Shown here piece after piece: positions 12,040 through 25,690 of a stretch of 58,314 bases of DNA (its first letter is position 1; each line of letters opens with the position of its first letter). Both the position numbers and the translations under genes were made by a program. The notes under the pieces were generated by a model. The model was not told where the DNA came from and did no database searches. It saw only the letters and a program-made list of their open reading frames with translations. Origin of the DNA: a virus; IMG/VR virus record IMGVR_UViG_3300017694_000094, positions 1 to 58,314 of that record; one strand, written 5' to 3'.

Positions 12040-12071
12040 GCAGCCCCTGCGGTCACGGTCGCAGGGGCTGC
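12040..12071. terminator. convergent (bidirectional) terminator hairpin
   Basis: Perfect 12-bp stem GCAGCCCCTGCG / CGCAGGGGCTGC with an 8-nt loop, between the convergent gene ends. It overlaps the last codons of the giant ORF. Confidence 0.6.
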
Positions 12072-15000
12072 TTGATCGCCTTGATGTAGACCGAATTGAA
12101 CGCGGTAATCGTCCGCTTCTCGGCGTCCGTGACCTTCGCCATACGCTCGGCATAGGTGGCGGCGTCGATCTTCTTCTGATCCCTCGCCAGTTCCAGCCCG
12201 TTGCGCGCCTTGCGCACCTCCGACATGGTTTTCCGCGCCGCCTTCGCCGCGCCGATCAGGCCAACGGTCGGCTTCTCTTCCGCGATATACGCCCGCGCCG
12301 CCGCCACGCCGCTGCGCTGCGCATAGCTTTTCGCGTTGTCGACCACGCCCTCGACCTCTTCGAGCCGAGCATAGAACGCGGACTTGTCGTACCATGCCGG
12401 CTTCTTGCCGATCACCTTGCGAGCCAGCGGGATGTCGTTGACGCCCAGCACCGTCTCGGGGTCGCCGTCTGCCAGCTTCAGCGGCGCGGCCAGAGTCCGG
12501 TCCACGAACGCGCCCGCGCCGCCGGTGACCATCCCGAACAGATATTCCAGCGTCTCGGGCGACACGTCGACCGCGCCCGCGACAACCTCGTCGCCGCCGG
12601 TGCCGACGTTCAGCAAATCGGTGACGCCCTTCCAGACCGGGTTGACGTTATTCCAATAGCGCTGATTGTCCGGCTCCTTCGGGCCGAAGGGCGTGTCGTT
12701 CGGCATGATCGGGCGGCCGGCGTAATCCTTGTTCAGCGTCAGGTCGACGACCGGATCAGCGAACGTCGGCGAGATCATGTTCAGCAGGCTCCCCGAGCCG
12801 ATCGGGTTGAACGCCTCGAAGAACGCCATCAGCGCGTCGGTCGCGACGGTCATCGGCCGGTCGCCCTTGGCCCCCCGCACGATGCTCCGGCCCAGCGTGT
12901 GGAAGGCGTTGTACCCCCACGGCATCGGCAGCTTCAGGTACTCTCCCCACGGCCCCTTGACCATGAGGATCATGTTGCGGCTCTTCTCGAACTCGCCCAG
13001 CTTCTCGTACACTGGCTCGCCGTCGTCGTCGTCCGGCGACAGCATGGTATTGAGCAATTCCTGAAGCGCTCCGGCCACGACGATCGCGCCGACCACCTTC
13101 TGCACCCGGCGGTTGCCGAGCGCGACCATCATACGCGCCGTGCCCTGGATGCTGGCGTTGTAGAACAGGTACAGCGCGTTCATCAGCACACCGTACTGGC
13201 CGCGGCGGTTGAAGTTGACCGTCAGATTCTTGGCGATGCTCGCCGCCTGTGGTGCCGATACGCCCGCCTGCCGCGCGTTCTTGTACGCCGACAGGCGGAT
13301 CGCGTTCTCGACGCCGGTGTTCAGCTTGTCGATGAAGCCATAGGCCGCCTTGATGTCGCTCATCGCGATCATGGCAAGCTGCTTCGGCGCGGTGTTGAGG
13401 CCGGTCGGGTTTGGTCGACGCTTCGGATCGAACCGCCGCTCCATCTCTTTCCGCAGCGTCTCCAGATCCTGCATCTGGTTGTACGACACGCGCCCGCCCT
13501 CGTCGGTGAACTCGCGCCACCACCGACCCCACTCGCCCGTCTCATTGCCGAACGCGCCGCGGGTCGCCGCCGCCATTGCCGCGCGCCAGTCCTTCAGCGT
13601 GCCGCGCTGTAGCCCCGGCACGTCGATGCCGGCGAGATTGACGCCCGCGGTCTGCACGTCGCGGAAGGCGTTCGTGATGATGAACTCGGGGTTGAGGCTG
13701 GTGTTGACCGACGACAGGAAGCGATTCCACTTCCCCAGGAAGACGAGCGCTTGGCTGGTCTTCTGCTCGTCGAGTCGACGCATTGCCTCCGCCAACCGCC
13801 GCGCCGCCGGGTTGGCCTTGTTCATGGTCACGCGGGCTTCCTTGCCCTCGATCTTCAGGCTGACCGTCCAGTCGGCATCCTCGCCGACCAGCGCGCGAAC
13901 CGGGTAGCTTTCCACGAACCCCGTGAGCGGGTTCATCTGCCGCTTCATGGTGACCTTGTTGACGGTCCAGAAGTCGGGGTCCGGCGACGCTTTCGCCAGA
14001 TCGTAGAACGCGCGCGCCACCTTGTTCTTCTCGCCGCGGACGATCGCTTCCTCCGCCTGCATGATCGAATGCGCGATGATGTCGTCGGCCATGCTGCGGC
14101 GACCGAAGGCCCGCTTCGATTCCGCGCCGCGCACCGTCAGGCCCATGCCTCCCGTGCTGCCGCGTTCGTTGGCGTTGTCGAGTTCGGCGAACCCGCGCAG
14201 GGGGACGTAGAACTCGTATGCACTGTCCCAGCTATCCGCCTGCTCTTCACTTAGGAGTCCAGCCTCACGGCGTTCGTTGCGCGCGAACTCCAGCATCCCG
14301 TACACGCGGTCCGCCACCCGCTCGAAAGCGTTGGTGCGGCCGGCGCGATCAATGCGCGCGAGGATCGCCGCTGCTTCAATGTCGCTCATACCGGAGCCGC
14401 TGCCATCGGCGAAATCGGGGTTGATGCTGGCGACGTGTGCGTTCCGCTCTGGCGCGTGCTTGGCGTACAGGAACGACTCCAGTTCGTCGGCGCTGACGCC
14501 CTCCGCTTCCATCGCCGCGAATAGCGGGTCGACGTGCGCGTCGGTCAGCCGTTCCATCTTCGCGCCGACACGGCCGGTCATCAACTCTTCCGCCAGATAC
14601 GGACGCTCGTCGTCACGCAACTCGCGGCCGATCACCCGCTCCACCGCCGCCTCGGCGCGCAGCGCGGGCAACATGCGGTCTTGAAGCCGGACGCGCCATG
14701 CGTCGACGCCCTCGCCCAGTCGCCCGACCAGCGTCTTCGCCGCTTCGGTCGCCTCGCTCACGGTCGCCGGGTTCGGCGCAGCCGCATCGCCCATGATGCT
14801 CTCGCGCGGCGCGCCGCCGGCCGCCTCGCCCTCGCGTGCGCCGATCGCGCCCCTGTCAATTTGGCGCATGATGTCGCCAGCCGTCTGCGTGCGCGTCACC
14901 AGCTGGCGGATTGCGGCGATGAAGTCGCGGATGCGGCCGAGCGCTGCACCCATGAAGCCGGTGCGGTTGCCCTGCCACTGCGCGAACATGATCGCGACAG

Positions 15001-18000
15001 CCTCTTCCGTCTGCCCCGCTTCGTCCAGGCTGCCGTAACGCTCCTTCACGCGCGCCATGATCTTGGCGTCGGCGCGTGCCGCCTTCTCCAGCGTGACCCA
15101 CTCCGCGCCGCGGAACAGGCCCATATCGCGCAGCGCGTGGACGAACTCATGGTGGAAGGTGGCGGTCGGGTCCGCGCCGTTGTCGAGCGCGACCGAGATG
15201 ACGCCGTTGAAATACATGCCGGCGACGCGGTTGTCGTTCAGCAGCGTGTTGACGGTCGAGATCACCAGCCGGTCACCGCTGATTCCCATCCGCTTCGCCT
15301 CAGCCGCCAGCTTCGCGCGGACGGCATCCATGTCCGCGCCTTCGCCCGCGGCCTCGTCCGTGACCGACAGCTTCGCGCCGTCCGGTAGCGGCGGCAAGGG
15401 CGCGTTCTTCGCCGACGCTTCCGCGGTAAGCTGGCTCTCGATCCGGTTGACGTTGCCCGCCAGTTCGTCGATCTCGGCCTGCCCCGCGAACGCCTTCTTG
15501 GTCTGCGGCGTGTATTCGGCGATGTCGGTCTTCGCCCGCTCGATCTTCCCGCGCGCGTCGGCGAGGTCGCTCTCGAAGCCGCGCAGCACCGCCGCCGCCG
15601 ACTGCGGGATACCGTCCGGCGTCTCCGCGCGGATGCGCTGCTGCTGCTCGCCATTGCGGTTGAGGTACAGCGTGACGGACGTATCCTTGCCGTACACGGC
15701 CACGTCGACCGTCAGCGGGAAGCCGCTGATCTCGGCGATCTTGCGGTCGCGTACCGTCGTCTTCTTCGCGGCCATTTCTTCCATGCGGTCGAGGATCGCC
15801 TGACCGAACTCGGCGCGGACCGTGTATTCGGTGCCGCCCACGGTCGCCTTGAAGTTGTCGCCGCTAATGTCTTGGCGCTGCGCGATGTCCTTCTCGATCT
15901 CGGGAATCGCCGCGTTCTGACGCTCGATCGTCTCTTCTGCCAGCCGCACCCGCTCGGCCGCCGCGAAGACACTGCGCTCGAACCCGGCCTTGCGCAGTTG
16001 CGCCCGCTCCAGATCCTGCCGGTACTGCGTCAGTTCGAGGATGCGCGGGTCGGCCGTCGTCAGCGCCTTCGCCTGCTCGTACTGGCTGGCCTCGCCCAGA
16101 TCGTCCATCGATCGCAGGGACGGGTCGCCGTTGAAGAACCCGTCGATGAAGCGCGCCTTCGTCTCCATCATCTGCCACATCGTGGAATCGTAGGTGCCCT
16201 TGGTCGAGTAATCGCGGATCTCGATCTCGGGGTTCATGTTGCCCTGGCGCAGCCCGCGCCCGTTCCGCTGCTCGTCGTTCGCGGGATACCACTGCGGGTC
16301 GAGGTTGTGGATCGCATAGAGGCGGCGCTGCGCGTTGACGCCCGTTCCCATCTTCGGAACGCTGCCGATCAGCACCCGCACCTTGCCTTCGTTCATGTCG
16401 TTGAACAGGCGCTGCCGTGCAACGCTGGTCTTGTAATCGGAGATGATCGCCACCTCCGAATCCTTCAGCCCGCCGGCGATCAGGCGCTGGCGGATATAGC
16501 GGTGGATCTGGAAGTCTCCGTTGATGCCGAGATCGGAGAAGATCATCTGAGTCGCCGGCCCGGTGAACGCTGGCGTGCTGGCGTAGCCGCCCGCTTCCGC
16601 CCGATAGAACGGCTTGGCCTTCGTCTCTTCGGCGATGCGCGAGACGCTATCGATCAGCATCTCCAGCTTCGATTGCTCGTCCTCGCGCAGCGCCGGATTG
16701 ACGAGGCGCATATCGATCGCGGCCTTGCGGCCGTCGCCGATGACGGACAGCAGGATGTCGTCGCCCTTCTTCGGCTTCCCGCGGCGCGCCTCGATCGCCT
16801 TCATGCGCGCGCCGAGCGTCTGCTGGTATTCCTGCAAGGCCGGCGTCGGCTCCGCGACGATCATCTGGCGGCTGCCGCCCTTCAGCTTCGGCCGCACCAC
16901 GTACTGCTCAAGCTGGCGGCTGGTCACCACGTCCATGACCTGCCGCACCATCGCGGACAATTCGGGCACGTTGACGAACTTGGCGAACCGGGTCTGCGGC
17001 TTGTAGCCGCCGGCCGGGTCTTGCTCCAGCGCGGTCACCGTCTCGCCGAACGCGCCGGCCCATGCGTCGAACTGCTCCAGCCCGCGCTCCGCCAATTCGC
17101 TCGCCTGCTGATAGCGCTGGAGGCTGAACAACTCCGCCATCGTGTTCGTGACCGGCGTGCCCGACGCCAGCACATGGCTCCGGCCGGGGTTCTGCTCTTC
17201 GAGGTAGCGGGTCTTGGCGAACAGGTCGTAACTCATCGCCGAGCCGTTGGGGTCGACGCCGCGGACGCTCCCCATCTTGGTCGCGAAGTCCAGCTTGCGA
17301 AACAGGTGGGCCTCGTCGACGAACAGGAAATCGATACCGGTTTCCTCGAACGTGAACACCTGATCGGCCCGCTTCTTGCGACCGCTCAGCTTCTGCGTCA
17401 TCGACTCGATCTGCTGTTCGATCCGGCTGACCGTGATCCGCTTGGACGGGTCGCTGCTCTTCTCGGCCTTCAACTCGTTCAGGATGCCGCGGAAATCGTC
17501 GATCTGCTTCTTCAGCAGCCGGTCGGCGAACGCATCGCTGACCGGGATGAAGCCGAACGCAGAATGCGTGATGATGACCGCATCCAGATCCTCGGTCGCC
17601 ATGTTGGCAACGAACTGCTTACGGCGGTCCGTGTGGAACTGGCGCTCGTCCGCAACCATGATCTTCGCGGTCGGGTACTGCTCGTAGAACTCCTTGGTGA
17701 ACTGGCCGAGCATATGGTTCGGCACCGCGTACATGGGTTTGCGCACCAGCCCGAGCCGGCGCATTTCCATGCCCGCGCCGATCATGGCGCTGGTCTTCCC
17801 CGCGCCAACCGCGTGGGCCATGTACGTGTTGCCGGCCTGGATGATGCGCGACACCACGCGCTTCTGGTGCGGACGCCATGACCACGACTCCGCGATGCCC
17901 GGCGTCGTCAGGTACGATCCGTCATAGGTCGGCGCGACAAGATTGTTATAGGACTCGTTGTAGAGTCCTACCAACTCTCCAGCCCGCTTGTCGTCGCTCC

Positions 18001-21000
18001 ACACCCACTCCGAGAACTTGGCGCGCATGTCGCGCACCTTGTCCTGCGCGGCCTGCGTCTCGACCGGGTTGATGACGCGCTGCTCTTTGCCATCGGCGTC
18101 GCGATAGGTGTCGTAGATGTTGGTCTGCTGGCGGTTGAGCGCATCGTTCAGCAACTCGATCGCGTTGCGCCGGCCGGTGCCCCATTCCGTCGTCGCCGCC
18201 GCGCCGTAGGCGTTGCCATGCACGGACCACTGCGCCAGCTTCGGGCGATAGACCGCGTTGACGTTGCTCAGCCCCAGCGATTCCGCGAACTGCTGGATCA
18301 CCGGCGCGGGGATCCACGGCATTCCCAGATTGGCCGAGATGTCGGACGGTCCCAGCAAAGCCGGCTGCACCGCTTCCAGCGCGGCGACGTTCCGCCGCAG
18401 GTCGGGGTCGCGTGCCGCCTCCGCGCGCGCCATGTCCAACTTCTGGCGCACGTTGCCGGACAGGTACTGCTCGCGGGTCTGGTACGTCTCGCCCTGCCCT
18501 GGCACCCGGAACACGCTATTGCCCAGGTCCTCCAGCGCCTGACTGCGCGAGATGCCCGCGCGATCGGCAATCTCGCTGAGGTCGGGGCGGCCGGTCCGAT
18601 TCAGGACGTACAGCAGCGCGTCGTTCGCCGAGCGGATCTCCGGCACCGTCTCTTGGCTGACGACGTTACGGAAGAAGATCGCGCCCTTCTGCGCCTCGCC
18701 GGTATCGTCGTTGTAATGCTCGATCGACCGGAGGCGGTAGCCTTCCTGATCGTCCATGAAGGCGTCCACGTTCGGGCGCTTCACGATTACCTTGTCGGGC
18801 ATCTCTGCCGGGTCGAAGTCGCCCTCGTCCCACTCGCGGCCGAGCGCCGCCGCCGTCTCGCGCGCCGCGCGCCGCGCCGCCGCGATCTCCGCCAGCTTGG
18901 CATTCGGGTCTTCCGGCGTGAAGCTGCCCTCGTTGAAGAACCCGCCGGCAAGCCGCGCCTCTTCGCGCGCCTGCGCTCGCGCCGATTCCTGCTCGATCAC
19001 GGACGGGCGCTGGTAGCGGATCTCGGCCTTATTGATCGGGCCGAACTGCTGCACGAAGCGATCGTAATTGCTGTTCAGTTCAGCGCGCGCCGCTGTCGCC
19101 GCCGCGGTGTTGCTCGCCAAGTCGGCGGACAGCACCTTGCGAAGAGAGTCCCGAATTGGGACGAGGGCGCGGATGCGCTCCTGATCCGCCGCGGGGATGC
19201 CGCCCTTCACGCCCTTGCCGCGGCCCTCGACCGGCGAGCCAAGCCCGCCGCGCTGCTGCATCAGGCGACCGTCGCTGCCGACGTAGAACGATCCTTCCTT
19301 GCGCTCCGTCGTCTCGGTGTCGAAGTCGGTGGCCGGGCCGGTCCACGCGGCAATCTGCGTGCGCTCGGCGACGCGCTGGAGCGCGGCCGGCAAATCCTTC
19401 GCCATGTCCTGCCCGTCGCGCAGTCGGACACCGTAGCGCTCGCCGGCCGTCAGCAGGTCGAATAGCCCCTGCTCGCCCAGCACCTGATCGGGGTTCTCGA
19501 CGAAGTAGCTGTTGACTGCCGTCTCCGCCGTGCCGCCGCTGCGGGTTGGGAGCATAACATCGGTCGTGCCGACCCACTGGCGCGGACCGGGCGCGGCACC
19601 GGCCTCGCGCTTCTTCAGCACGATGATATCGGTCGTCACGTCCGTGCCTGCGTTCTCGCGGAACGCACCGCCCGGCAGCCGCACCGCGCCGACCAGATCC
19701 GCGCGCTCCGCCATCCACGCGCGCGCCTTGTCGCTCACCTTGTTCATGGTGCCGGCGCTGGTCACGAACATCAGCAGACCACCCGGCCGCACCGCATCCA
19801 GGCTCTTCGCGAAGAAGAAGTCGTGCAGCACGAACCCGAGATTGCCGTAATTCGGATCAGATCGGACCACCGTCTGCGAGAACGGCGGGTTGCCGATGAC
19901 GAGATCGTAGGTGTCGCGCGGGAGAACCCCCTGCGTGAAATCCGCCTGCCGGATACCCGACTGCGGGTAGAGAAGCTGGGCGATACGTGCCGTGATGCCG
20001 TCGAACTCGACGCCCTGGTACTGCGATCGCGCGGCGATCTCCGCCGGCATCATGCCGAGGAAATTGCCCGTACCCATGCCCGGCTCGAACACCTTGCCGC
20101 CGGTGAAGCCCATAGCCCGCACGGCGTCCCACATCGGCCGGATGATCTGCTCGGACGTGTAGTGCGCGTACTGCACCGACCGGCGAGCGGTGTCGTATTC
20201 CTCGTCGGTCAGCAGTTCGCGGACGCGCGGGCCGATCTTCTCGAACCCCTTGGAATAGCCGGAGCCGGTGTCGCTGAAGGCGTTCTTCAGGCCGCCCCAG
20301 CCGACATACTTGGCAAGCGCCGCCTGCTGCTCGCGCGTTGCCGGCGCGCCGCTGGCGTCGAGTTCGCGAACGATCTCGATCGCGCGCACGTTGTCCCGCG
20401 CCTTCTGCGCCGCGCCGCGCGCCTCGTCGAGCGCGCCCGGCTCGATACGCCAGTTCTCGCCGGTTACCCGTTCTGCCGCGCTGTCTCGGGCACCATCTCG
20501 CCGTCCACGTCCGGCGTCGGCTGCTCGGGCGGGAACTCGATCAGCGTCGACCGCACCTGCTGCTCGATCTCCCTCCGGCGCGCGTCGTCCTTCATCAGCC
20601 CGTTCGGATGCGTCGCCTCGCCCGCGCTCAGATCCTTGAACATCTGACCGGCTTCCTTCGCCTTCGCTTGCAGGTGCGCGTCCATCGCTCCGCTCTTGCG
20701 CAGCTGGTTGAACATCCGCGGCGCTTGATCCCGCATCGCGGTCAGATACTGCTCCTTGATCTCCACGGCCTTCCTCCTCGATCTGCGCGGCGCTGCTCAT
20801 GTCGCGAGCAATGGCGTCCATGCCTGGGTAATAACGCGCCGACTCGTAGAACGAGCGCAGATAAGGGCGCACGCTCTCGCCGATGTCGGCCACCATGCGG
20901 CTGCTGAAGTCGGCGAACTTGCGCGCGCCGGCCTCGATATGGAACACCGCCAGTTCCGCGCCCAGCGCCAGCACCTCGGGATCGATGCCCGAATTGATCT

Positions 21001-24000
21001 GGCCCATCTTGGCGCGCAGCTTCTCACGCAGGATCGCAGCGCGATCCGTGGTCACCAGCTTGTTGGATGCGCCGTAGGTTGCCGTCTCTCCGGCTGCCAC
21101 GCCCTTCGATGCGTTAGCGGCGGAACCCTCGCCCCGGCCGGAAGCGACATTCTGCTGCGCGCTTTCCTGCGCCTGCGCGGCCGGCGCGTCAACCCGGACG
21201 ATCGTGCCGCTCTTCAGCCCCTGCTCGATCTCATAATTGTTGAGCGAAGACGCGCCACCTGTCTCCACGTTGCGAAAGAACGCGCTGCGCTGGCCGGGGC
21301 GGCCATCGACCTCATAGGTGGTGCTGGCACCTTCGCGGCCTAGATACCCGACCGGGGCAGTGAAGACGTAGCGCTCGCCGCCACGAACCCAAGGGTTCGG
21401 GTTTTTCTTGTCCGTTGCTCGGCGCAGGGACGGCTTAGCCGCCGGGGCCGGGGCTGGTGTGACGACGGCCGGAGCGGGCGGGTTGAACCGCGTCATCATC
21501 TCTTCGACCGCGCGCTGCATGGCCTCGGCCTTGCCGAACCCACCGCCCGCGCCAGCCCCGCCCAGCGCGAAGGACACGGGCGATCCATCGTCCTGCGTGC
21601 GGACCGTCCAGCCCCGCGGCGTTTGCTCGACCCACACGGTCTTCCCGTACTGGCCGTCATAGTCGAAGTGGACGCGATCGCCGTTGTTGATCGCGGTGCG
21701 GGCTTCGGCCAGCGTCTTTGCCTCAACCGTCTTGGGGGCGGCAGGCTGCGGCGCAGGATCGCGCGCGCCCTGCTTCGCGCGCTGGTCGGCACGCGCCGTA
21801 TCCATCAAGTCGGGTTGGCCGGCGTTGTTGTCGAACAGCCCACCGTCGCTGCCAGCGGCTTTCTGCGCGACCGTCGCGCGCGAGCGGCCTTCGCTCTGGC
21901 GTTCTAGCGCGCGGCGCTGGTCGCCTTCGCGCTCGCCGAATGCGTCCGCTTGTACTGGTCGATCTTCCTGAGTTGCCCGGCCAGCTTCGCCGCGTCCTTC
22001 TGCTGCGCTGGCGACAGGCGGGGATGACTCGAAGCCTTCGACATTGCCGAAATCAGCGGAGCGAGGGGCGTCTTCGTCGAACGGGATGTCGAACGCTGCG
22101 TCGTCGGTTTGCTCATAAAAGTCCTCGCTCCGTGCCTCCGCCTTGCCGCGGAAATAATCCTCGACCGCTTCGAGCGAAGAACGCCCGTCAGCCATATACG
22201 CCGCAACGCCGTCGATGTCCTCGGCGGTCGCGTCGGTGATCCCGTATTCCTCCAGCCCGCGCTCGGCGAACACGCGCGCGCCCTCGCGGTCCGTCTCGTC
22301 CTGCCGCGCCGCCTTGCGATCGGCCACGTCCGCGGCGTCCGCCGGGCGGTACTGGTTCTCGAACGCGGAGCGATCCAGCATGTCTATGACCTGCCGCGTC
22401 GTCGGCCGCTCTTGGAAGTAGCCCGCCTCCGCCAGCAGTTCGCCGGCCTCGTCGAGCGTCATGCCGTTCTTGCGGAAGACGTGCCCGCCGCCCGGCGCGA
22501 ACTGCGATAGGTCGCGACTGCCCGCGCCCTGGTTGCGCGAGCGACGCTTCAGCGCATGGCCTTCGTCGTCGCGGATGCCGCCGTTGCGAGCGAGAAAGGT
22601 GACCGCATCCACCGGCGCAGTATCGCGCGTAGCGCGCGGCTTGGCGGCGGGGGGCGCTTGCTCTGCGGCCTCAACACGGCTGACGAAAGCGTCGGTGCTT
22701 TCCACCGGGGTCCGCGTCAGGCCCACACGCTCGGCGCGTTCGCGAAGATTGCCAGCCGGCGGTGGGGTGTTCGGCGCGGCGGGCGCGCCCTGCGGGTCCA
22801 GCTTGTTCGTGATCTGCTCGATCGCTTCAGCCGCGCCCATCACGTCACGGTTGGGCGGGCGAACCGCGCGCACCTCCGCCGCCTCGCCCATGACAGCGGC
22901 ATACGCGCCTTCGAGATACGAGAGCCGCGGGTTCCAGCCGGAGCCGCCGCCTTCGCGTGCCTTTACGACCGTGGACTGGTGACGATCGCTGATCTCGTAA
23001 TCGAGAATTGCCTGCACGTTACCGGCCTTGCCGACGCTCCAGCCATTAACCAGATCCTGCGCAACGGGGCTTTCGCGATGCGGCAGATCGCCCAGCGCGC
23101 TGGTCGCTCGCTTGAACTCCGTCGACTTCCATACCTTCTTGAACGTCGCGTCGTCGACCGCCTCGGAGGTGACAGGTTCTGTCACCCTCGCGCCCTGCTT
23201 CCGCATCTGATCTGCGCGTCGCGCGACCGCGGCGGCTTCCTCGACCGGCATACCGCCGGACAAGGTATCGCTGACCGCCATCTGTTGCGGCGACTGCTCT
23301 GCGGCTGGAGTGCTGACAGGAGTGACGCTGGATAGCGCCGCTTCGATCTCGCCGCGATACTTCGCGCTGTAGACCTGCGAGCCATCCTTGTTCACGACCG
23401 CGCGCGCCTTCGGGACCGCCTGCGCGATAGCCGCAAGCTGCGCCTCCGATGCGCCAGCGACGGCGATACCCTTGCCGCTCGGCGTCTCGGTGATCGTCGG
23501 CATGGTGACCGGGGCGGCGGCTGGCGGCGACACGACAGGATCTGTCCTATCGGCGACGGGCGCGGCCAGCGGCGCGGCTGGTTCCACTGTGGCATCAGCG
23601 ACGGGGGCGGGTTCCTGCTCAACTGCTGACGACGTGTCAGCAGCGGCGGGCGCGGCCGGCAACTCGACCTGCGCCGTTGACAGCGGCTCGTCCAGCAGGC
23701 GCGAGCGCTCGGCTTCCTCGATTGGCGCGGGCGGGGCGGCGTCGGCGGCGGTGCCGGCGGTGGCCCCGCGCTGCCCGCCGATGTGGCGCGCAGTCCATTC
23801 CATCGCCTGCGCGTTCGTCATGCCGGCGAACTGCGGGTTCGCTTTCACGATCGCACGGTCGACCGCCGCCGTGGGGTTGCGCGACATGCTGAGCGCGCCG
23901 CCCAGGCCGAAGTGATGCGCGGCGTACAGCGAGGCGTCGTCGACCGGGATGCCCGCGCGCGTCAGGCCCGCGGCGTTCTCTTCGGTCATGGCCCGCATCA

Positions 24001-25690
24001 AGCGGTCCTGCACCTCGGGATCATTCTTCGCGCCGGCCGGCGGGGTGCCGCCATAGACCTTCTCGTAGTAGCGGGCGAAGGTGCTGTCCGTGAACTGGTA
24101 GCGGCCCGATGCGCTCGACCGGCTGTTCGCCGCCGCGTCATTGCCGCCGCTCTCCGCCTGACGTGCGCGCGCCATGTACGATGTCACACTGACCTTCCCC
24201 TTGCGGGGCGTCTGTGACACCGGCGCGGCGGCGGGTTCAGCTGCTGCGGGCGTCTCGCCGGTCTGCGCGATCGCTTCCAGCGTTGCGGCTGGGTCTAGCC
24301 CGCCCGCGCGCATGTCGGCCTCGGCCTGCGCCTGCTCGTCGGCGGTCGGCCCGGCAACCGGCGTCAGCGATACGCCCGCATCCTGCAAGTCGGCGAAGAA
24401 CTCCTTCATGGAGCCGCCGCCGTCCAGATCGATGTTCACGCCCGGCTGTGCGCCCAACTCCGCGTCGCTCTGGTCGACGAAGGCGTCGCGGATCGTGCCG
24501 GTGCGCTGCTTGCCGTTGATGGTGATCGATACGCGCGTGCCGACCTCGGGCGCGCCGTTCTGCGTGAGGATGCCGTTGGCCTCGGTCGTCGCGGTGCTTG
24601 CGCCCATGACGCGCTTGCCCTCGGCGATCAGGTCCGTGGGTAGCGGGCTGGCCGCATCCGCCTCGGTCACCGGGGCCGGCGTGGCTTCGGCTGCCTCGAT
24701 CACGCCCGGCGCGACGCGCTGGCCGCGCAACCGCCGCGCCACCGCGCCCGGCGTTTCCACCGCGCCGCGGATTGCGCCGCCCATGAAGCCGCCCGCGATC
24801 GCGCCTGCCGCCGCCTGATCCGCCGCTTCGCGCCAGTCGAACCCGGCGTCTGTGCCAAGGTTCGAGCCGGCATATTCCACCGGCGACTGGAGCGCTTCCG
24901 TCAACGCCTCCGCGCCGAACGCCTGCGCGATGCGGCCGGCGACGGACTTCGCGCCCGCGCCGAAGATCCCGTGGATGCCGAGCCGTTCGAGCGCGGCGCT
25001 GCCGACCGCGGCCGGCAGGGCGGCGAACACGTCGGCGGCGTCGGCGTCCGTCTCGCCGTTGTTCTGCGCGCGCTGCTGGCCGGTGCTGCCAGCCTGAAGG
25101 CCGATGTACGGCGCGAGGCCAGCGCCCGTTGCCAGCAGCCCCATGTCCGCCGCGGACGATGCGCCCTGCTCCAGCACGAAGCGCGCCAGTCCGCCGATCG
25201 TCGGGTTCTTTTTCAGCCCGTCCCACGTCTGCTCGCCCTCGATGGGGCGGTTGCTGTATTCCTCGGCGGATTGCGTCTTTGCGCGCAGCCACTGCGCCGC
25301 CTCGCCGTCAGGATCGATGCCGACCTCCGTCAGCCCGGTCAGCGCCAACCGTCCGCCGCCGGCACCCAGCCCGCGCACACGACGCCAGAAGGATTCGCCG
25401 ACCCGGCCGAGTTCGCTATCCGCCTCGATCGGCGCGACCGCGCGCTTCTCTGCCTGCTCGCGCGCGCGTGCTTCCTGCCGGCGTGGAGCGGTGTCGGCCT
25501 CGCGCACGGTGCGGGCGAACGTCTCGGCCGCCTGCTTCTGCGGCTTGCCGAACGATGTCAGATCGAAATTGCTCTTATCCGACACGTCCTTCGCGCCGAA
25601 CAGGTCGTCCATGACCGATACGCCGATTGGCTTGGCGGTGTCCCGCTTTGGTCCGAAGATGTCATCTACCAGCTTCGGACCAAGGGCCAT
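12053..25690 (-). CDS. giant polyvalent protein (4,545 codons): SLT + N6-adenine MTase + SNF2 helicase + HExxH + membrane C-terminal region
   Basis: Uninterrupted 13,638-nt ORF. ATG 25690 lies behind GGGAG. All motifs read in frame: ESGGN/SGRYQF (24060-24154), EPGMGTGNF (20060-20086), NPPF (19880-19891), GAGKT (17792-17806), DEAH (17306-17317), QRNGRGLRQGN (16238-16270), HEFVH (15137-15151). Confidence 0.85.
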   Translation of the reverse strand: MALGPKLVDDIFGPKRDTAKPIGVSVMDDLFGAKDVSDKSNFDLTSFGKPQKQAAETFARTVREADTAPRRQEARAREQAEKRAVAPIEADSELGRVGESFWRRVRGLGAGGGRLALTGLTEVGIDPDGEAAQWLRAKTQSAEEYSNRPIEGEQTWDGLKKNPTIGGLARFVLEQGASSAADMGLLATGAGLAPYIGLQAGSTGQQRAQNNGETDADAADVFAALPAAVGSAALERLGIHGIFGAGAKSVAGRIAQAFGAEALTEALQSPVEYAGSNLGTDAGFDWREAADQAAAGAIAGGFMGGAIRGAVETPGAVARRLRGQRVAPGVIEAAEATPAPVTEADAASPLPTDLIAEGKRVMGASTATTEANGILTQNGAPEVGTRVSITINGKQRTGTIRDAFVDQSDAELGAQPGVNIDLDGGGSMKEFFADLQDAGVSLTPVAGPTADEQAQAEADMRAGGLDPAATLEAIAQTGETPAAAEPAAAPVSQTPRKGKVSVTSYMARARQAESGGNDAAANSRSSASGRYQFTDSTFARYYEKVYGGTPPAGAKNDPEVQDRLMRAMTEENAAGLTRAGIPVDDASLYAAHHFGLGGALSMSRNPTAAVDRAIVKANPQFAGMTNAQAMEWTARHIGGQRGATAGTAADAAPPAPIEEAERSRLLDEPLSTAQVELPAAPAAADTSSAVEQEPAPVADATVEPAAPLAAPVADRTDPVVSPPAAAPVTMPTITETPSGKGIAVAGASEAQLAAIAQAVPKARAVVNKDGSQVYSAKYRGEIEAALSSVTPVSTPAAEQSPQQMAVSDTLSGGMPVEEAAAVARRADQMRKQGARVTEPVTSEAVDDATFKKVWKSTEFKRATSALGDLPHRESPVAQDLVNGWSVGKAGNVQAILDYEISDRHQSTVVKAREGGGSGWNPRLSYLEGAYAAVMGEAAEVRAVRPPNRDVMGAAEAIEQITNKLDPQGAPAAPNTPPPAGNLRERAERVGLTRTPVESTDAFVSRVEAAEQAPPAAKPRATRDTAPVDAVTFLARNGGIRDDEGHALKRRSRNQGAGSRDLSQFAPGGGHVFRKNGMTLDEAGELLAEAGYFQERPTTRQVIDMLDRSAFENQYRPADAADVADRKAARQDETDREGARVFAERGLEEYGITDATAEDIDGVAAYMADGRSSLEAVEDYFRGKAEARSEDFYEQTDDAAFDIPFDEDAPRSADFGNVEGFESSPPVASAAEGRGEAGRATQEDRPVQADAFGEREGDQRRALERQSEGRSRATVAQKAAGSDGGLFDNNAGQPDLMDTARADQRAKQGARDPAPQPAAPKTVEAKTLAEARTAINNGDRVHFDYDGQYGKTVWVEQTPRGWTVRTQDDGSPVSFALGGAGAGGGFGKAEAMQRAVEEMMTRFNPPAPAVVTPAPAPAAKPSLRRATDKKNPNPWVRGGERYVFTAPVGYLGREGASTTYEVDGRPGQRSAFFRNVETGGASSLNNYEIEQGLKSGTIVRVDAPAAQAQESAQQNVASGRGEGSAANASKGVAAGETATYGASNKLVTTDRAAILREKLRAKMGQINSGIDPEVLALGAELAVFHIEAGARKFADFSSRMVADIGESVRPYLRSFYESARYYPGMDAIARDMSSAAQIEEEGRGDQGAVSDRDAGSSAADVQPAAQERSDGRAPASEGEGSRSDVQGSERGRGDASERADEGRRAPEGDRAAGAVDADRVPARAADAGRGRRDGARDSAAERVTGENWRIEPGALDEARGAAQKARDNVRAIEIVRELDASGAPATREQQAALAKYVGWGGLKNAFSDTGSGYSKGFEKIGPRVRELLTDEEYDTARRSVQYAHYTSEQIIRPMWDAVRAMGFTGGKVFEPGMGTGNFLGMMPAEIAARSQYQGVEFDGITARIAQLLYPQSGIRQADFTQGVLPRDTYDLVIGNPPFSQTVVRSDPNYGNLGFVLHDFFFAKSLDAVRPGGLLMFVTSAGTMNKVSDKARAWMAERADLVGAVRLPGGAFRENAGTDVTTDIIVLKKREAGAAPGPRQWVGTTDVMLPTRSGGTAETAVNSYFVENPDQVLGEQGLFDLLTAGERYGVRLRDGQDMAKDLPAALQRVAERTQIAAWTGPATDFDTETTERKEGSFYVGSDGRLMQQRGGLGSPVEGRGKGVKGGIPAADQERIRALVPIRDSLRKVLSADLASNTAAATAARAELNSNYDRFVQQFGPINKAEIRYQRPSVIEQESARAQAREEARLAGGFFNEGSFTPEDPNAKLAEIAAARRAARETAAALGREWDEGDFDPAEMPDKVIVKRPNVDAFMDDQEGYRLRSIEHYNDDTGEAQKGAIFFRNVVSQETVPEIRSANDALLYVLNRTGRPDLSEIADRAGISRSQALEDLGNSVFRVPGQGETYQTREQYLSGNVRQKLDMARAEAARDPDLRRNVAALEAVQPALLGPSDISANLGMPWIPAPVIQQFAESLGLSNVNAVYRPKLAQWSVHGNAYGAAATTEWGTGRRNAIELLNDALNRQQTNIYDTYRDADGKEQRVINPVETQAAQDKVRDMRAKFSEWVWSDDKRAGELVGLYNESYNNLVAPTYDGSYLTTPGIAESWSWRPHQKRVVSRIIQAGNTYMAHAVGAGKTSAMIGAGMEMRRLGLVRKPMYAVPNHMLGQFTKEFYEQYPTAKIMVADERQFHTDRRKQFVANMATEDLDAVIITHSAFGFIPVSDAFADRLLKKQIDDFRGILNELKAEKSSDPSKRITVSRIEQQIESMTQKLSGRKKRADQVFTFEETGIDFLFVDEAHLFRKLDFATKMGSVRGVDPNGSAMSYDLFAKTRYLEEQNPGRSHVLASGTPVTNTMAELFSLQRYQQASELAERGLEQFDAWAGAFGETVTALEQDPAGGYKPQTRFAKFVNVPELSAMVRQVMDVVTSRQLEQYVVRPKLKGGSRQMIVAEPTPALQEYQQTLGARMKAIEARRGKPKKGDDILLSVIGDGRKAAIDMRLVNPALREDEQSKLEMLIDSVSRIAEETKAKPFYRAEAGGYASTPAFTGPATQMIFSDLGINGDFQIHRYIRQRLIAGGLKDSEVAIISDYKTSVARQRLFNDMNEGKVRVLIGSVPKMGTGVNAQRRLYAIHNLDPQWYPANDEQRNGRGLRQGNMNPEIEIRDYSTKGTYDSTMWQMMETKARFIDGFFNGDPSLRSMDDLGEASQYEQAKALTTADPRILELTQYRQDLERAQLRKAGFERSVFAAAERVRLAEETIERQNAAIPEIEKDIAQRQDISGDNFKATVGGTEYTVRAEFGQAILDRMEEMAAKKTTVRDRKIAEISGFPLTVDVAVYGKDTSVTLYLNRNGEQQQRIRAETPDGIPQSAAAVLRGFESDLADARGKIERAKTDIAEYTPQTKKAFAGQAEIDELAGNVNRIESQLTAEASAKNAPLPPLPDGAKLSVTDEAAGEGADMDAVRAKLAAEAKRMGISGDRLVISTVNTLLNDNRVAGMYFNGVISVALDNGADPTATFHHEFVHALRDMGLFRGAEWVTLEKAARADAKIMARVKERYGSLDEAGQTEEAVAIMFAQWQGNRTGFMGAALGRIRDFIAAIRQLVTRTQTAGDIMRQIDRGAIGAREGEAAGGAPRESIMGDAAAPNPATVSEATEAAKTLVGRLGEGVDAWRVRLQDRMLPALRAEAAVERVIGRELRDDERPYLAEELMTGRVGAKMERLTDAHVDPLFAAMEAEGVSADELESFLYAKHAPERNAHVASINPDFADGSGSGMSDIEAAAILARIDRAGRTNAFERVADRVYGMLEFARNERREAGLLSEEQADSWDSAYEFYVPLRGFAELDNANERGSTGGMGLTVRGAESKRAFGRRSMADDIIAHSIMQAEEAIVRGEKNKVARAFYDLAKASPDPDFWTVNKVTMKRQMNPLTGFVESYPVRALVGEDADWTVSLKIEGKEARVTMNKANPAARRLAEAMRRLDEQKTSQALVFLGKWNRFLSSVNTSLNPEFIITNAFRDVQTAGVNLAGIDVPGLQRGTLKDWRAAMAAATRGAFGNETGEWGRWWREFTDEGGRVSYNQMQDLETLRKEMERRFDPKRRPNPTGLNTAPKQLAMIAMSDIKAAYGFIDKLNTGVENAIRLSAYKNARQAGVSAPQAASIAKNLTVNFNRRGQYGVLMNALYLFYNASIQGTARMMVALGNRRVQKVVGAIVVAGALQELLNTMLSPDDDDGEPVYEKLGEFEKSRNMILMVKGPWGEYLKLPMPWGYNAFHTLGRSIVRGAKGDRPMTVATDALMAFFEAFNPIGSGSLLNMISPTFADPVVDLTLNKDYAGRPIMPNDTPFGPKEPDNQRYWNNVNPVWKGVTDLLNVGTGGDEVVAGAVDVSPETLEYLFGMVTGGAGAFVDRTLAAPLKLADGDPETVLGVNDIPLARKVIGKKPAWYDKSAFYARLEEVEGVVDNAKSYAQRSGVAAARAYIAEEKPTVGLIGAAKAARKTMSEVRKARNGLELARDQKKIDAATYAERMAKVTDAEKRTITAFNSVYIKAIKQPLRP
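13040..13200 (-). other. hydrophobic (putative transmembrane) segments in C-terminal region of giant protein
   Basis: GVLMNALYLFYNASIQGTARMMVALG and VVGAIVVAGALQELL read from the translation. Confidence 0.4.
14950..15330 (-). other. zincin-like HExxH module of giant protein
   Basis: ATFHHEFVHALRDMG at 15137-15151 (+/-). Domain extent is guessed. Confidence 0.45.
16150..17880 (-). other. SNF2-type helicase module of giant protein
   Basis: WRPHQKRVV, AVGAGKTSAM (Walker A), FLFVDEAHLFRKL (DEAH), LASGTPVTN, and the QRNGRGLRQGN arginine-finger motif. Confidence 0.75.
19600..20330 (-). other. N6-adenine DNA methyltransferase module of giant protein
   Basis: KYVGWGGLKNAF lead-in, motif I EPGMGTGNF, motif IV VIGNPPFSQT. 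Borders are approximate. Confidence 0.75.
20464..20766 (-). other. frame-discordant segment A: 100-codon alternative-frame ORF encoding a helical domain (nested gene or displaced part of giant protein)
   Basis: ORF track 20464..20766. About 90 of 101 codons end in G/C, while the giant frame here is about half A/T-ending and low-complexity. AGGAGG lies 6 nt before GTG 20766. TAA at 20464-20466. Confidence 0.55.
21904..22023 (-). other. frame-discordant segment B inside giant ORF (alternative frame ends at TAG 21904-21906)
   Basis: Coordinates congruent to 1 mod 3 are G/C in 18/20 (21961-22020) and 19/20 (21901-21960), against 9/20 and 12/20 for the giant-ORF third position. The alternative frame reads LSPAQQKDAAKLAGQLRKIDQYKRTH. 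Confidence 0.5.
23770..24178 (-). other. lytic transglycosylase (SLT-like) domain of giant protein
   Basis: AESGGNDAAANSRSSASGRYQFTDSTF...LYAAHHFG. The catalytic-Glu context is typical of SLT/phage transglycosylases. Domain borders are approximate. Confidence 0.7.

Follow-up and report, generated by a model that had tools for sequence, protein, structure and literature searches.

DarB-like giant proteins are thought to shield injected DNA from restriction, and their genes occupy about one fifth of the genome in a large group of ~60-kb podophages (Bcep22-like, Ralstonia, PEp14-like, Lastavirus and others). In phage P1, the Dar accessory proteins DarA, DdrA, DdrB and Hdf are encoded by separate genes, and for the group of phages to which JC1 belongs a class of genes embedded out of frame in larger ones has been described, for example Rz1 inside Rz in the spanin genes (PMC9144972). 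Here we analyzed a 58,314-nucleotide (nt) stretch of viral DNA (IMG/VR record IMGVR_UViG_3300017694_000094, hereafter the window), in which a giant DarB-like open reading frame (ORF) on the minus strand encloses a small ORF in another frame, named S. Comparison with related sequences, on which the strength of the case depends, suggests that this region is probably a true dual-coding region, with S nested in the linker of the gene for a DarB-like polyvalent protein.

In the model that we favor, a pre-existing S gene would sit in the +1 frame exactly between a helical domain of the giant protein, named U, and the methylase module. A ribosome on the giant ORF would read through this gene, and the resulting linker, disordered and rich in Ala, Arg, Gly and Asp, would connect the N-terminal half with the methylase–helicase half; other ribosomes would start at an internal GAGGAGG-N6-GTG on the same mRNA to make a separate S protein ending at the TAA at 20464–20466. 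The two large coding regions were probably welded together via the alternate frame of the intervening gene, in which case the linker frame would be the younger one, and a 1-nt indel could toggle the locus between the nested and in-frame states, as in phage PBC5.

A second reading frame inside the giant gene

The initial annotation had reported a frame switch at 20464–20766, and a plot of G+C content by codon position bore this out. From approximately position 20770 to 20470, G+C at third codon positions (GC3) of the giant frame drops to 0.38–0.42 while that at first positions (GC1) climbs to 0.84–0.96, and directly past the S region GC3 is back to ≥0.8. Read in its own frame, S has GC1/GC2/GC3 values of 0.69/0.40/0.90, resembling the genuine genes of the window, and it is the sole same-strand internal ORF of the giant gene that passes a gene-composition filter. 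It lies complete inside the larger gene, on the same strand and in the other frame, as the members of embedded gene pairs do (Table 1). A recount found 90 of 101 codons of the alternative frame ending in G or C, in agreement with the original estimate; giant-frame codons, said to end in A or T about half of the time, do so in 61 of 101 cases. The Shine–Dalgarno (SD)-like sequence ahead of the S start and the stop codon followed directly by TGENW were both as first described, and the first start-type codon of the giant frame after the S stop, previously placed 23 codons downstream, is codon 26 (GTG at 20389).

Table 1 Features of the giant gene and of the embedded frame in the window
Feature	Position	Strand	Description
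Giant ORF	12053..25690	minus	4545 codons; DarB-like large polyvalent protein; host gene of the overlap
Nested gene S	20464..20766	minus	GTG start, 100 codons, TAA stop; +1 frame of the giant ORF; predicted four-helix protein, distantly TnpV-like
Giant-frame reading of the S DNA	20465..20767	minus	101-codon low-complexity linker rich in Ala, Arg, Gly, Asp, Ser and Glu, from U to the methylase module
SD-like GAGGAGG	20773..20779	minus	6 nt before the S start GTG 20766
S stop TAA	20464-20466	minus	Followed directly by ACC GGC GAG AAC TGG (TGENW)
U domain	20792..20998	minus	Giant frame; ~69 residues; helical; directly upstream of S
Methylase module, N-terminal part	19133..20464	minus	TGENW..IEPG..ARDN..YVGWGG; kept in all nested loci

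Conservation of S and of its nesting

A word-indexed search returned 18 close homologues of S (48–78% identity, all 82–105 amino acids (aa) long), which share the start M-E-I/F-K and have 17 invariant columns, and a profile search of 1.84 billion representative sequences returned 200 matches to the family. The 150 of these that were listed measure 45–399 aa, and the domain nearly always begins at residue 1; none of them is a giant protein carrying the S domain in frame, contrary to the suggestion that the true giant protein and its homologues might contain it. A hidden Markov model (HMM) of the family scores the window S at 134.6 bits. Judged by this conservation, S is a real protein-coding gene family. 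Searches of S against Pfam, PHROGs and NCBIfam gave nothing above threshold, and a cluster look-up for names of the NCBI copies found none that was named. The AlphaFold2 (AF2) model of S is a four-helix structure (mean predicted local distance difference test (pLDDT) score of 76.7) that had no Foldseek match in the PDB with an expectation value (E) < 1, and hence no convincing neighbor there. In BFVD its only match was Q8W6J4_2 (probability 0.98, template-modeling (TM) score 0.59, E 0.64), a chunk of a viral protein of ~2180 aa that, going by its length and with the accession unconfirmed, would be the C-terminal half of gp22 of phage PBC5, which carries an S-like domain in frame.

The nested arrangement recurs in metagenomic contigs (related loci are numbered with the prefix L). 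A giant-type ORF is open across S in L001 (54% identity to S, 58% G+C) and in L003–5, and S is nested in seven of seven IMG/VR viral contigs, with giant ORFs of 2904–4613 codons and S identity down to 38%; the loci in which nesting was seen are L001, L003-5, L009-L015 and L021-23. Everywhere the frame relation is constant, with position 1 of the giant codon corresponding to position 3 of the S codon, and S always stands immediately upstream of the methylase module with its TGENW..IEPG..ARDN..YVGWGG signature. The giant-frame peptide across S is of low complexity in all relatives, rich in Gly, Ala, Arg, Asp, Glu, Ser and Pro.

The window S had no tblastn match at 1e-3 among GenBank phages, and copies in cultured phages were found only through inspection of the equivalent junction. 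In Burkholderia phages DC1, Bcep22 and JC1 and Ralstonia phages Eline, RPZH6, YL1 and GP4 (B-type), giant-frame GC3 at the junction dips to 0.40–0.46, and the +1 frame holds an ORF of 105–112 aa with AGGAGG or AAGGAGG, an ATG start and a GC3 of 0.87; tblastn found this ORF in 41 GenBank records, each annotated with the giant coding sequence (CDS) alone. Another subtype (P-type), identical to S in position and frame and recognized by the motif MNLNNW..HWKE..P..Y..LK..G.L..AL..AAE..EAW.M.RE.YLFPPE, occurs in Atu_ph08, POI1126, PEp14, Pavtok, Stean, LASTA, SJM3, SopranoGao, Itty13, VvAW1 and Mwe-JY07. It brought 21 further GenBank records in which only the giant CDS is annotated, for a total of 62 records with a tblastn match. 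Besides position and frame, the three subtypes share the motif P-x2-[FY]-x2-[LM]-[KR]-x2-G-x-[LM]-x2-[AHY]-L, and we treat them as one diverged family, with the caveat that this assignment derives partly from the identical position and frame. The two-frame arrangement is present in >30 independent assemblies or loci, cultured phages included, and, as the alignments indicate, the arrangement, together with the start, SD sequence and stop of S, is conserved across very divergent phages.

Several of these loci have unusual annotations or frame boundaries. In Pseudomonas phage Itty13 (L044, NC_070969, 1-4036), two CDSs annotated as 'hypothetical protein' lie opposite the DarB-like ORF, which is open across the entire 4-kb locus and includes both U and the nested ORF; in this genome of 68% G+C, the annotation was probably placed on the wrong strand. 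The DarB-like gene of Ralstonia phage RPZH6 (L036, MT361768, 618-639) is annotated as the overlapping CDSs ORF73 and ORF72, which meet ~860 nt upstream of the nested ORF, with a stop in the giant-type frame near locus position 327; the split could be a frameshift in the record or real. In the short contigs L019 (345-1359) and L025 (382-1333), the giant-type frame begins ~310 nt upstream of S and inside S, respectively, and the N-terminal part may be unfused to the methylase part in some relatives, or the contigs may contain errors.

Constraint on both frames

Pairwise comparison of 13 nested copies gave mean differences of 0.369, 0.286 and 0.446 at S codon positions 1, 2 and 3, a pattern matched by the free-standing copies (0.374, 0.279 and 0.457). 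Because position 2 of S, which is position 3 of the giant frame, is the least variable, the opposite of the pattern expected if the giant frame were the constrained one, the data point to amino-acid constraint on S. By this measure S evolves as a protein under purifying selection, with position 2 < 1 < 3. The linker peptide is conserved only as far as S requires.

Constraint on the giant frame was assessed as P(open), the probability that this frame has no stop across S when the S protein is kept and synonymous codons are drawn from the usage of the flanking giant ORF. P(open) was 0.03–0.40 per S-type locus and 0.09–0.30 in the Bcep22/Ralstonia group (B-type). Among P-type phages it was 0.12 for Itty13, 0.044 for PEp14, 0.038 for Mwe-JY07, 0.019 for POI1126, 0.007 for Atu_ph08, 0.002 for LASTA and <0.0001 for VvAW1. 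The giant frame was open in every cultured phage tested, and for the seven P-type phages only, the joint probability falls below 1e-13 as a simple product that assumes independence.

T-ending codons are scarcer in nested S (0.01–0.07) than in the flanks (0.06–0.31), and the third-position composition of S matches first, not third, positions of the giant frame. This holds even in VvAW1, a phage of 51% G+C, where position 3 of S (A.18, C.22, G.53, T.06) can be set beside flank frequencies (A/C/G/T) of.25/.17/.27/.31 at position 3 and.26/.23/.42/.09 at position 1. The high GC3 of S is thus partly mutational bias and partly the imprint of a second frame. Across the relatives, the giant frame is kept free of stops, and its two sides in register, more than chance would predict.

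The U domain and in-frame U–S fusions

An HMM built from five U sequences matches the window U at 120 bits and finds U 50–110 nt upstream of S in 22 related loci; U had no match in Pfam or among PDB sequences. Standalone genes that encode U and S as a single in-frame chain are represented by P0033 (three contigs from three samples) and P0169 (52% identical); in P0026, also fused in frame, the order is S-U-(partial S). Modeled with AF2, P0033 reached a pLDDT of 84.7, its S part scoring 90–97 versus 76.7 for S alone, and Foldseek found nothing like the U+S model in the PDB. Separately, P0170 (430 aa, from an ENA contig) has U followed by a domain tabled as PF18763 in place of S, so that U also occurs in other polyvalent-protein architectures.

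In Sinorhizobium phage PBC5 (L039, NC_003324, 16949-32697), the DarB-like gene is annotated as gp22 and gp21 with 1.6 kb unannotated between them. As deposited, gp22 (2180 aa) runs through the N-terminal part, U and S in one frame and ends at the S stop. The methylase–helicase ORF is open from 26731 to 16949 (3260 codons) and overlaps the end of gp22 by 577 nt, its CDS being annotated only from an internal GTG. Relative to its closest relative Atu_ph08, which is in the nested state, PBC5 is missing one base in the U–S spacer, and this puts U and the S-like domain in the same frame; the missing base is either a real indel or a sequencing error of 2001.

Because U and S form one polypeptide in some relatives, Rosetta-stone reasoning would have S work with the U domain of the giant protein. 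We suggest only tentatively that S acts together with the giant protein, most likely by binding U. S could be a detachable subunit, a helper in assembly or packaging, or a regulator of the adjacent methylase.

Internal initiation versus frameshifting

All copies, whether nested or free-standing, have an ATG or GTG in one shared column of the alignment, and a purine-rich GGAG or GAGG lies 5–12 nt before it in nearly all loci examined (14 S-type and 11 B-/P-type), being weak in L011. Apart from this SD sequence, the aligned upstream sequences that were compared contain no shared motif, slippery site included, the RNA around the window S start has no stable structure (fold z = 0.43), and a promoter scan around S found none. 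A stop in the S frame immediately precedes the S start in L023, and stops lie 7–11 codons ahead of it in the window (10 codons), L011 and L021. Given a dedicated start with its SD sequence, no shared upstream motif, unstructured RNA and upstream stops, internal initiation is the most economical explanation, and we infer that S is initiated internally on the mRNA of the giant gene rather than reached by frameshifting.

Programmed +1 frameshifting between U and S would instead yield a truncated N-terminal-U-S product beside the full-length giant protein, with S not, or not only, initiated separately. The single-polypeptide state of U and S in the standalone P0033 and P0169 speaks for it, as does the deposited form of PBC5 gp22, whose overlapping methylase–helicase ORF lacks a good start, and by analogy with prfB and dnaX the internal GAGGAGG could in principle act as a stimulator. 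What is usually seen at such sites, a conserved slippery sequence, a stimulator and an open upstream target frame, was not found together here. The constant start column and an SD sequence at initiation distance argue for initiation instead, the L023 stop and those in the window, L011 and L021 leave little or no room to shift, and the one base by which PBC5 differs from Atu_ph08 fits an indel or an old sequencing error. We therefore consider programmed frameshifting decidedly unlikely, and the recoding that the initial annotation had offered as one explanation loses its footing on the same grounds.

A related and likewise improbable idea is that the dual-coding junction serves as a switch, thrown by +1 slippage or by 1-nt indels like that of PBC5. 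In one state the phage would make free S along with the fused ~480-kDa giant protein; in the other, the methylase–helicase would be expressed separately and the N-terminal half would end, truncated, as N-terminal-U-S. If this were true, S would be both a detachable subunit and an alternative C-terminal domain that controls whether the anti-restriction enzyme is tethered to the ejected N-terminal half, which would be a new regulatory logic for polyvalent proteins, with two giant genes welded through the second frame of an older TnpV-like gene.

Weighing the dual-coding reading

Certain observations weigh against nesting as we describe it. For the window alone, P(open) is ~0.22 under flank codon usage; openness there is not improbable, and the strength of the case therefore comes from the comparison with relatives. 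The similarity of S to the B- and P-type ORFs is marginal even in targeted searches (hhalign P 1.5e-4 to 3.3e-4, HMMER 6–20 bits). The in-frame U–S products (PBC5 gp22 as deposited, P0033 and P0169) leave room for a frameshifted N-U-S product, and S is nested without U within the fetched flanks of L014, L015 and L021-23, which counts against binding to U.

The N-terminal part, S and the methylase–helicase could also be three separate cistrons, the open giant frame being a by-product of composition. A first position occupied by G or C cannot begin a stop codon, and in high-G+C phages P(open) is appreciable (0.2–0.4 in the window, L012 and DC1). The giant-type frame is open as well in the free-standing locus L002, it starts near or inside S in L019 and L025, and on short contigs gene callers begin the downstream gene 57–75 nt past S. 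Yet the upstream part has no stop of its own, which obliges ribosomes to continue; it shares its frame with the downstream part in every full-length locus; the frame is open where chance predicts closure, as in LASTA, Atu_ph08 and VvAW1; it is T specifically that is scarce at S third positions; and in the window the first 25 giant-frame codons past the S stop include none of start type. In addition, JC1 gp69 was reported as a single virion-associated protein of 4515 aa, in a study that gives no peptide coverage across the junction (PMC9144972). On balance, we regard three cistrons as very unlikely.

It is more improbable still that S is a relic, a captured gene that is no longer expressed and whose DNA serves only as a linker. 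S has no assigned function, and none of the 62 GenBank phage records annotates it as a separate gene. Against this, nested copies at 38–78% identity keep the same order of codon-position variability as free-standing ones, the start codon, SD sequence and an uninterrupted frame of 80–130 codons are kept in every lineage, and the giant-frame peptide is conserved no further than S dictates. A sequencing or assembly error, or a recent compensated +1/−1 frameshift pair, by which the giant protein would hold the 100-aa domain in frame, was the first possibility raised in the initial annotation and, despite short G/C runs near both ends of S and the better coding statistics of the alternative frame, is effectively refuted by the recurrence of the arrangement in >30 independent assemblies from differing samples and platforms as well as in cultured phages, the conserved start, SD sequence and stop that belong to S, the lack of an in-frame giant carrier among the 150 best of 200 profile matches, and a giant frame kept open against expectation, which would be pointless if it were untranslated there.

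Origin of S and its possible link to TnpV

Free-standing S genes occur in chromosomes of metagenome-assembled genomes and on short contigs, where the giant-type frame is closed or no long ORF is present. Their neighbors include resolvases (L002 and L026), IS5- and IS66-type transposases (L007) and a DUF3987 protein (L026). Given these homologues in mobile elements, and amino-acid constraint that falls on S and not on the linker, S appears to be the older frame, and the giant ORF would have arisen via read-through that fused an N-terminal gene to a methylase–helicase gene. The initial annotation had named a gene overprinted on a linker as a second possibility; nesting is supported, with its polarity refined, as S is the conserved gene with its own SD sequence and start and the linker looks like the overprinted frame.

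Two groups of free-standing copies deserve separate mention. In L002 (790-1107, JGI Ga0247390_1058434), S lies beside a resolvase and the giant-type (+2) frame is open from 696 to 1199, an openness expected by chance in only 4–8%; this S may be a recently excised copy of the nested gene. A subfamily represented by P0023, P0030 and P0077 has a conserved C-terminal extension of ~150 residues with the motifs IYGDD and LWDEY, and extended copies lie in transposase or resolvase neighborhoods (L007 5252-5848, L018 2857-3720 and L026 2384-3316); the extension matched no Pfam family.

TnpV (PF14198) is the best Pfam match for 14 of 19 S-type and three of seven P-type members, the two subtypes arriving at it independently, all below threshold (best E among relatives 9.7e-5; P-type at most 20.7 bits versus a gathering threshold of 27), and the window S had no match to it at E ≤ 1. 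TnpV of Tn4451 is a small protein encoded beside the serine recombinase TnpX, for which a role in excision was postulated by similarity to lambda Xis (PMC3158075). We considered S as an Xis-like partner of a phage serine recombinase and rejected the idea: none of the 20 larger window ORFs that were scanned turned out to encode a recombinase, and the idea is further weakened by the occurrence of the nested gene in phages described as lytic.

The giant gene and other features of the window

The giant ORF encodes a multidomain polypeptide that combines an N6-adenine methylase, a superfamily 2 (SF2) helicase and LPD domains. Pfam identified LPD38 near the C-terminus above the cut-off (127 bits), and the Eco57I-type methylase, ResIII and Helicase_C matches all fell below it. 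By tblastn, the methylase module is ~43% identical (E ~1e-106) to giant CDSs annotated as 'DarB-like antirestriction' in Ralstonia, Burkholderia, Erwinia, Vibrio and other phages, with matches covering residues 4-444 of the 19133..20464 stretch, whose first codon overlaps the last base of the S stop codon. The window represents a whole phage genome or a sizeable portion of it; its other genes include those for a major head protein, a portal/adaptor protein, a terminase nuclease domain, an ERF recombinase and a replication initiator. No plasmid or phage matched 19500-22500 in a megablast search.

A weaker second dip, the only other clear one in the giant gene, occurs at 21850-22090 on the minus strand, where giant-frame GC3 is 0.54–0.64 and GC1 0.80–0.88 over a linker rich in Glu, Ala, Gly, Asp and Arg. 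A second nested gene in the +1 ORF 21904..22206 was rejected, as its composition (GC1.58, GC2.64, GC3.80) is not gene-like and it matched nothing in Pfam or PHROGs, and the dip looks like an ordinary low-complexity linker. The earlier argument that confinement of the anomalies to this one gene speaks against random error is sound.

Implications

All 62 GenBank records that tblastn matched miss this conserved extra gene. Should S be expressed, it would be a candidate accessory factor for the DarB-like system, mutating or deleting its stretch of the giant gene would alter two proteins at once, and proteomic searches based on current annotations would be unable to detect it; the JC1 virion mass spectrometry, for example, searched annotated proteins only (PMC9144972). 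The locus also offers a natural example of an overlap that probably arose by fusion across an intervening gene, in which dual constraint is measurable even at 51% G+C. For annotation, the lesson is that a codon-position plot reveals S, whereas standard gene callers drop it on long contigs.

Comparison with known systems

An embedded out-of-frame phage gene is a known kind of arrangement; as far as we searched, this instance, its breadth across genera and its apparent origin by fusion are undescribed in the literature, where we came across no mention of a gene nested in a DarB-like one. The host gene is homologous to P1 DarB and to the DarB-like Bcep22 gp75, JC1 gp69 and DC1 gp67, with a methylase module ~43% identical. 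As in those phages it follows the head and portal genes, and in these relatives, too, an ORF is nested at this junction, with an identical frame relation. In sequence, the Bcep22- and Ralstonia-group ORFs resemble the window S only marginally (hhalign P 1.5e-4).

As with TnpV, S is small and its free-standing homologues adjoin resolvase genes (L002 and L026), but its relatives score below the Pfam cut-off, and S in the window lies inside a DarB-like gene, not beside a recombinase. The likeness to Rz1/Rz is closer in form: S is a complete small gene that a larger one fully encloses on the same strand and in a different frame, it has an SD sequence and start to itself, and both frames are conserved. 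It differs in that the host is a multidomain gene of 4545 codons and the overlap falls on an inter-domain linker. The embedded S also appears to be the older partner, with free-standing and fused homologues, and the host frame a low-complexity newcomer. Compared with Rz1/Rz, joint action of S and the giant protein is in our case an inference. Finally, the locus resembles viral overprinting (PMC8227390) in having one older conserved frame and another that is odd, low in complexity and disordered, with third positions cross-constrained. Unlike in such cases, the new frame here is not a new protein but a linker fusing two large pre-existing coding regions, and the overlap seems to have come about incidentally, when genes fused across an intervening one, rather than through gene birth.

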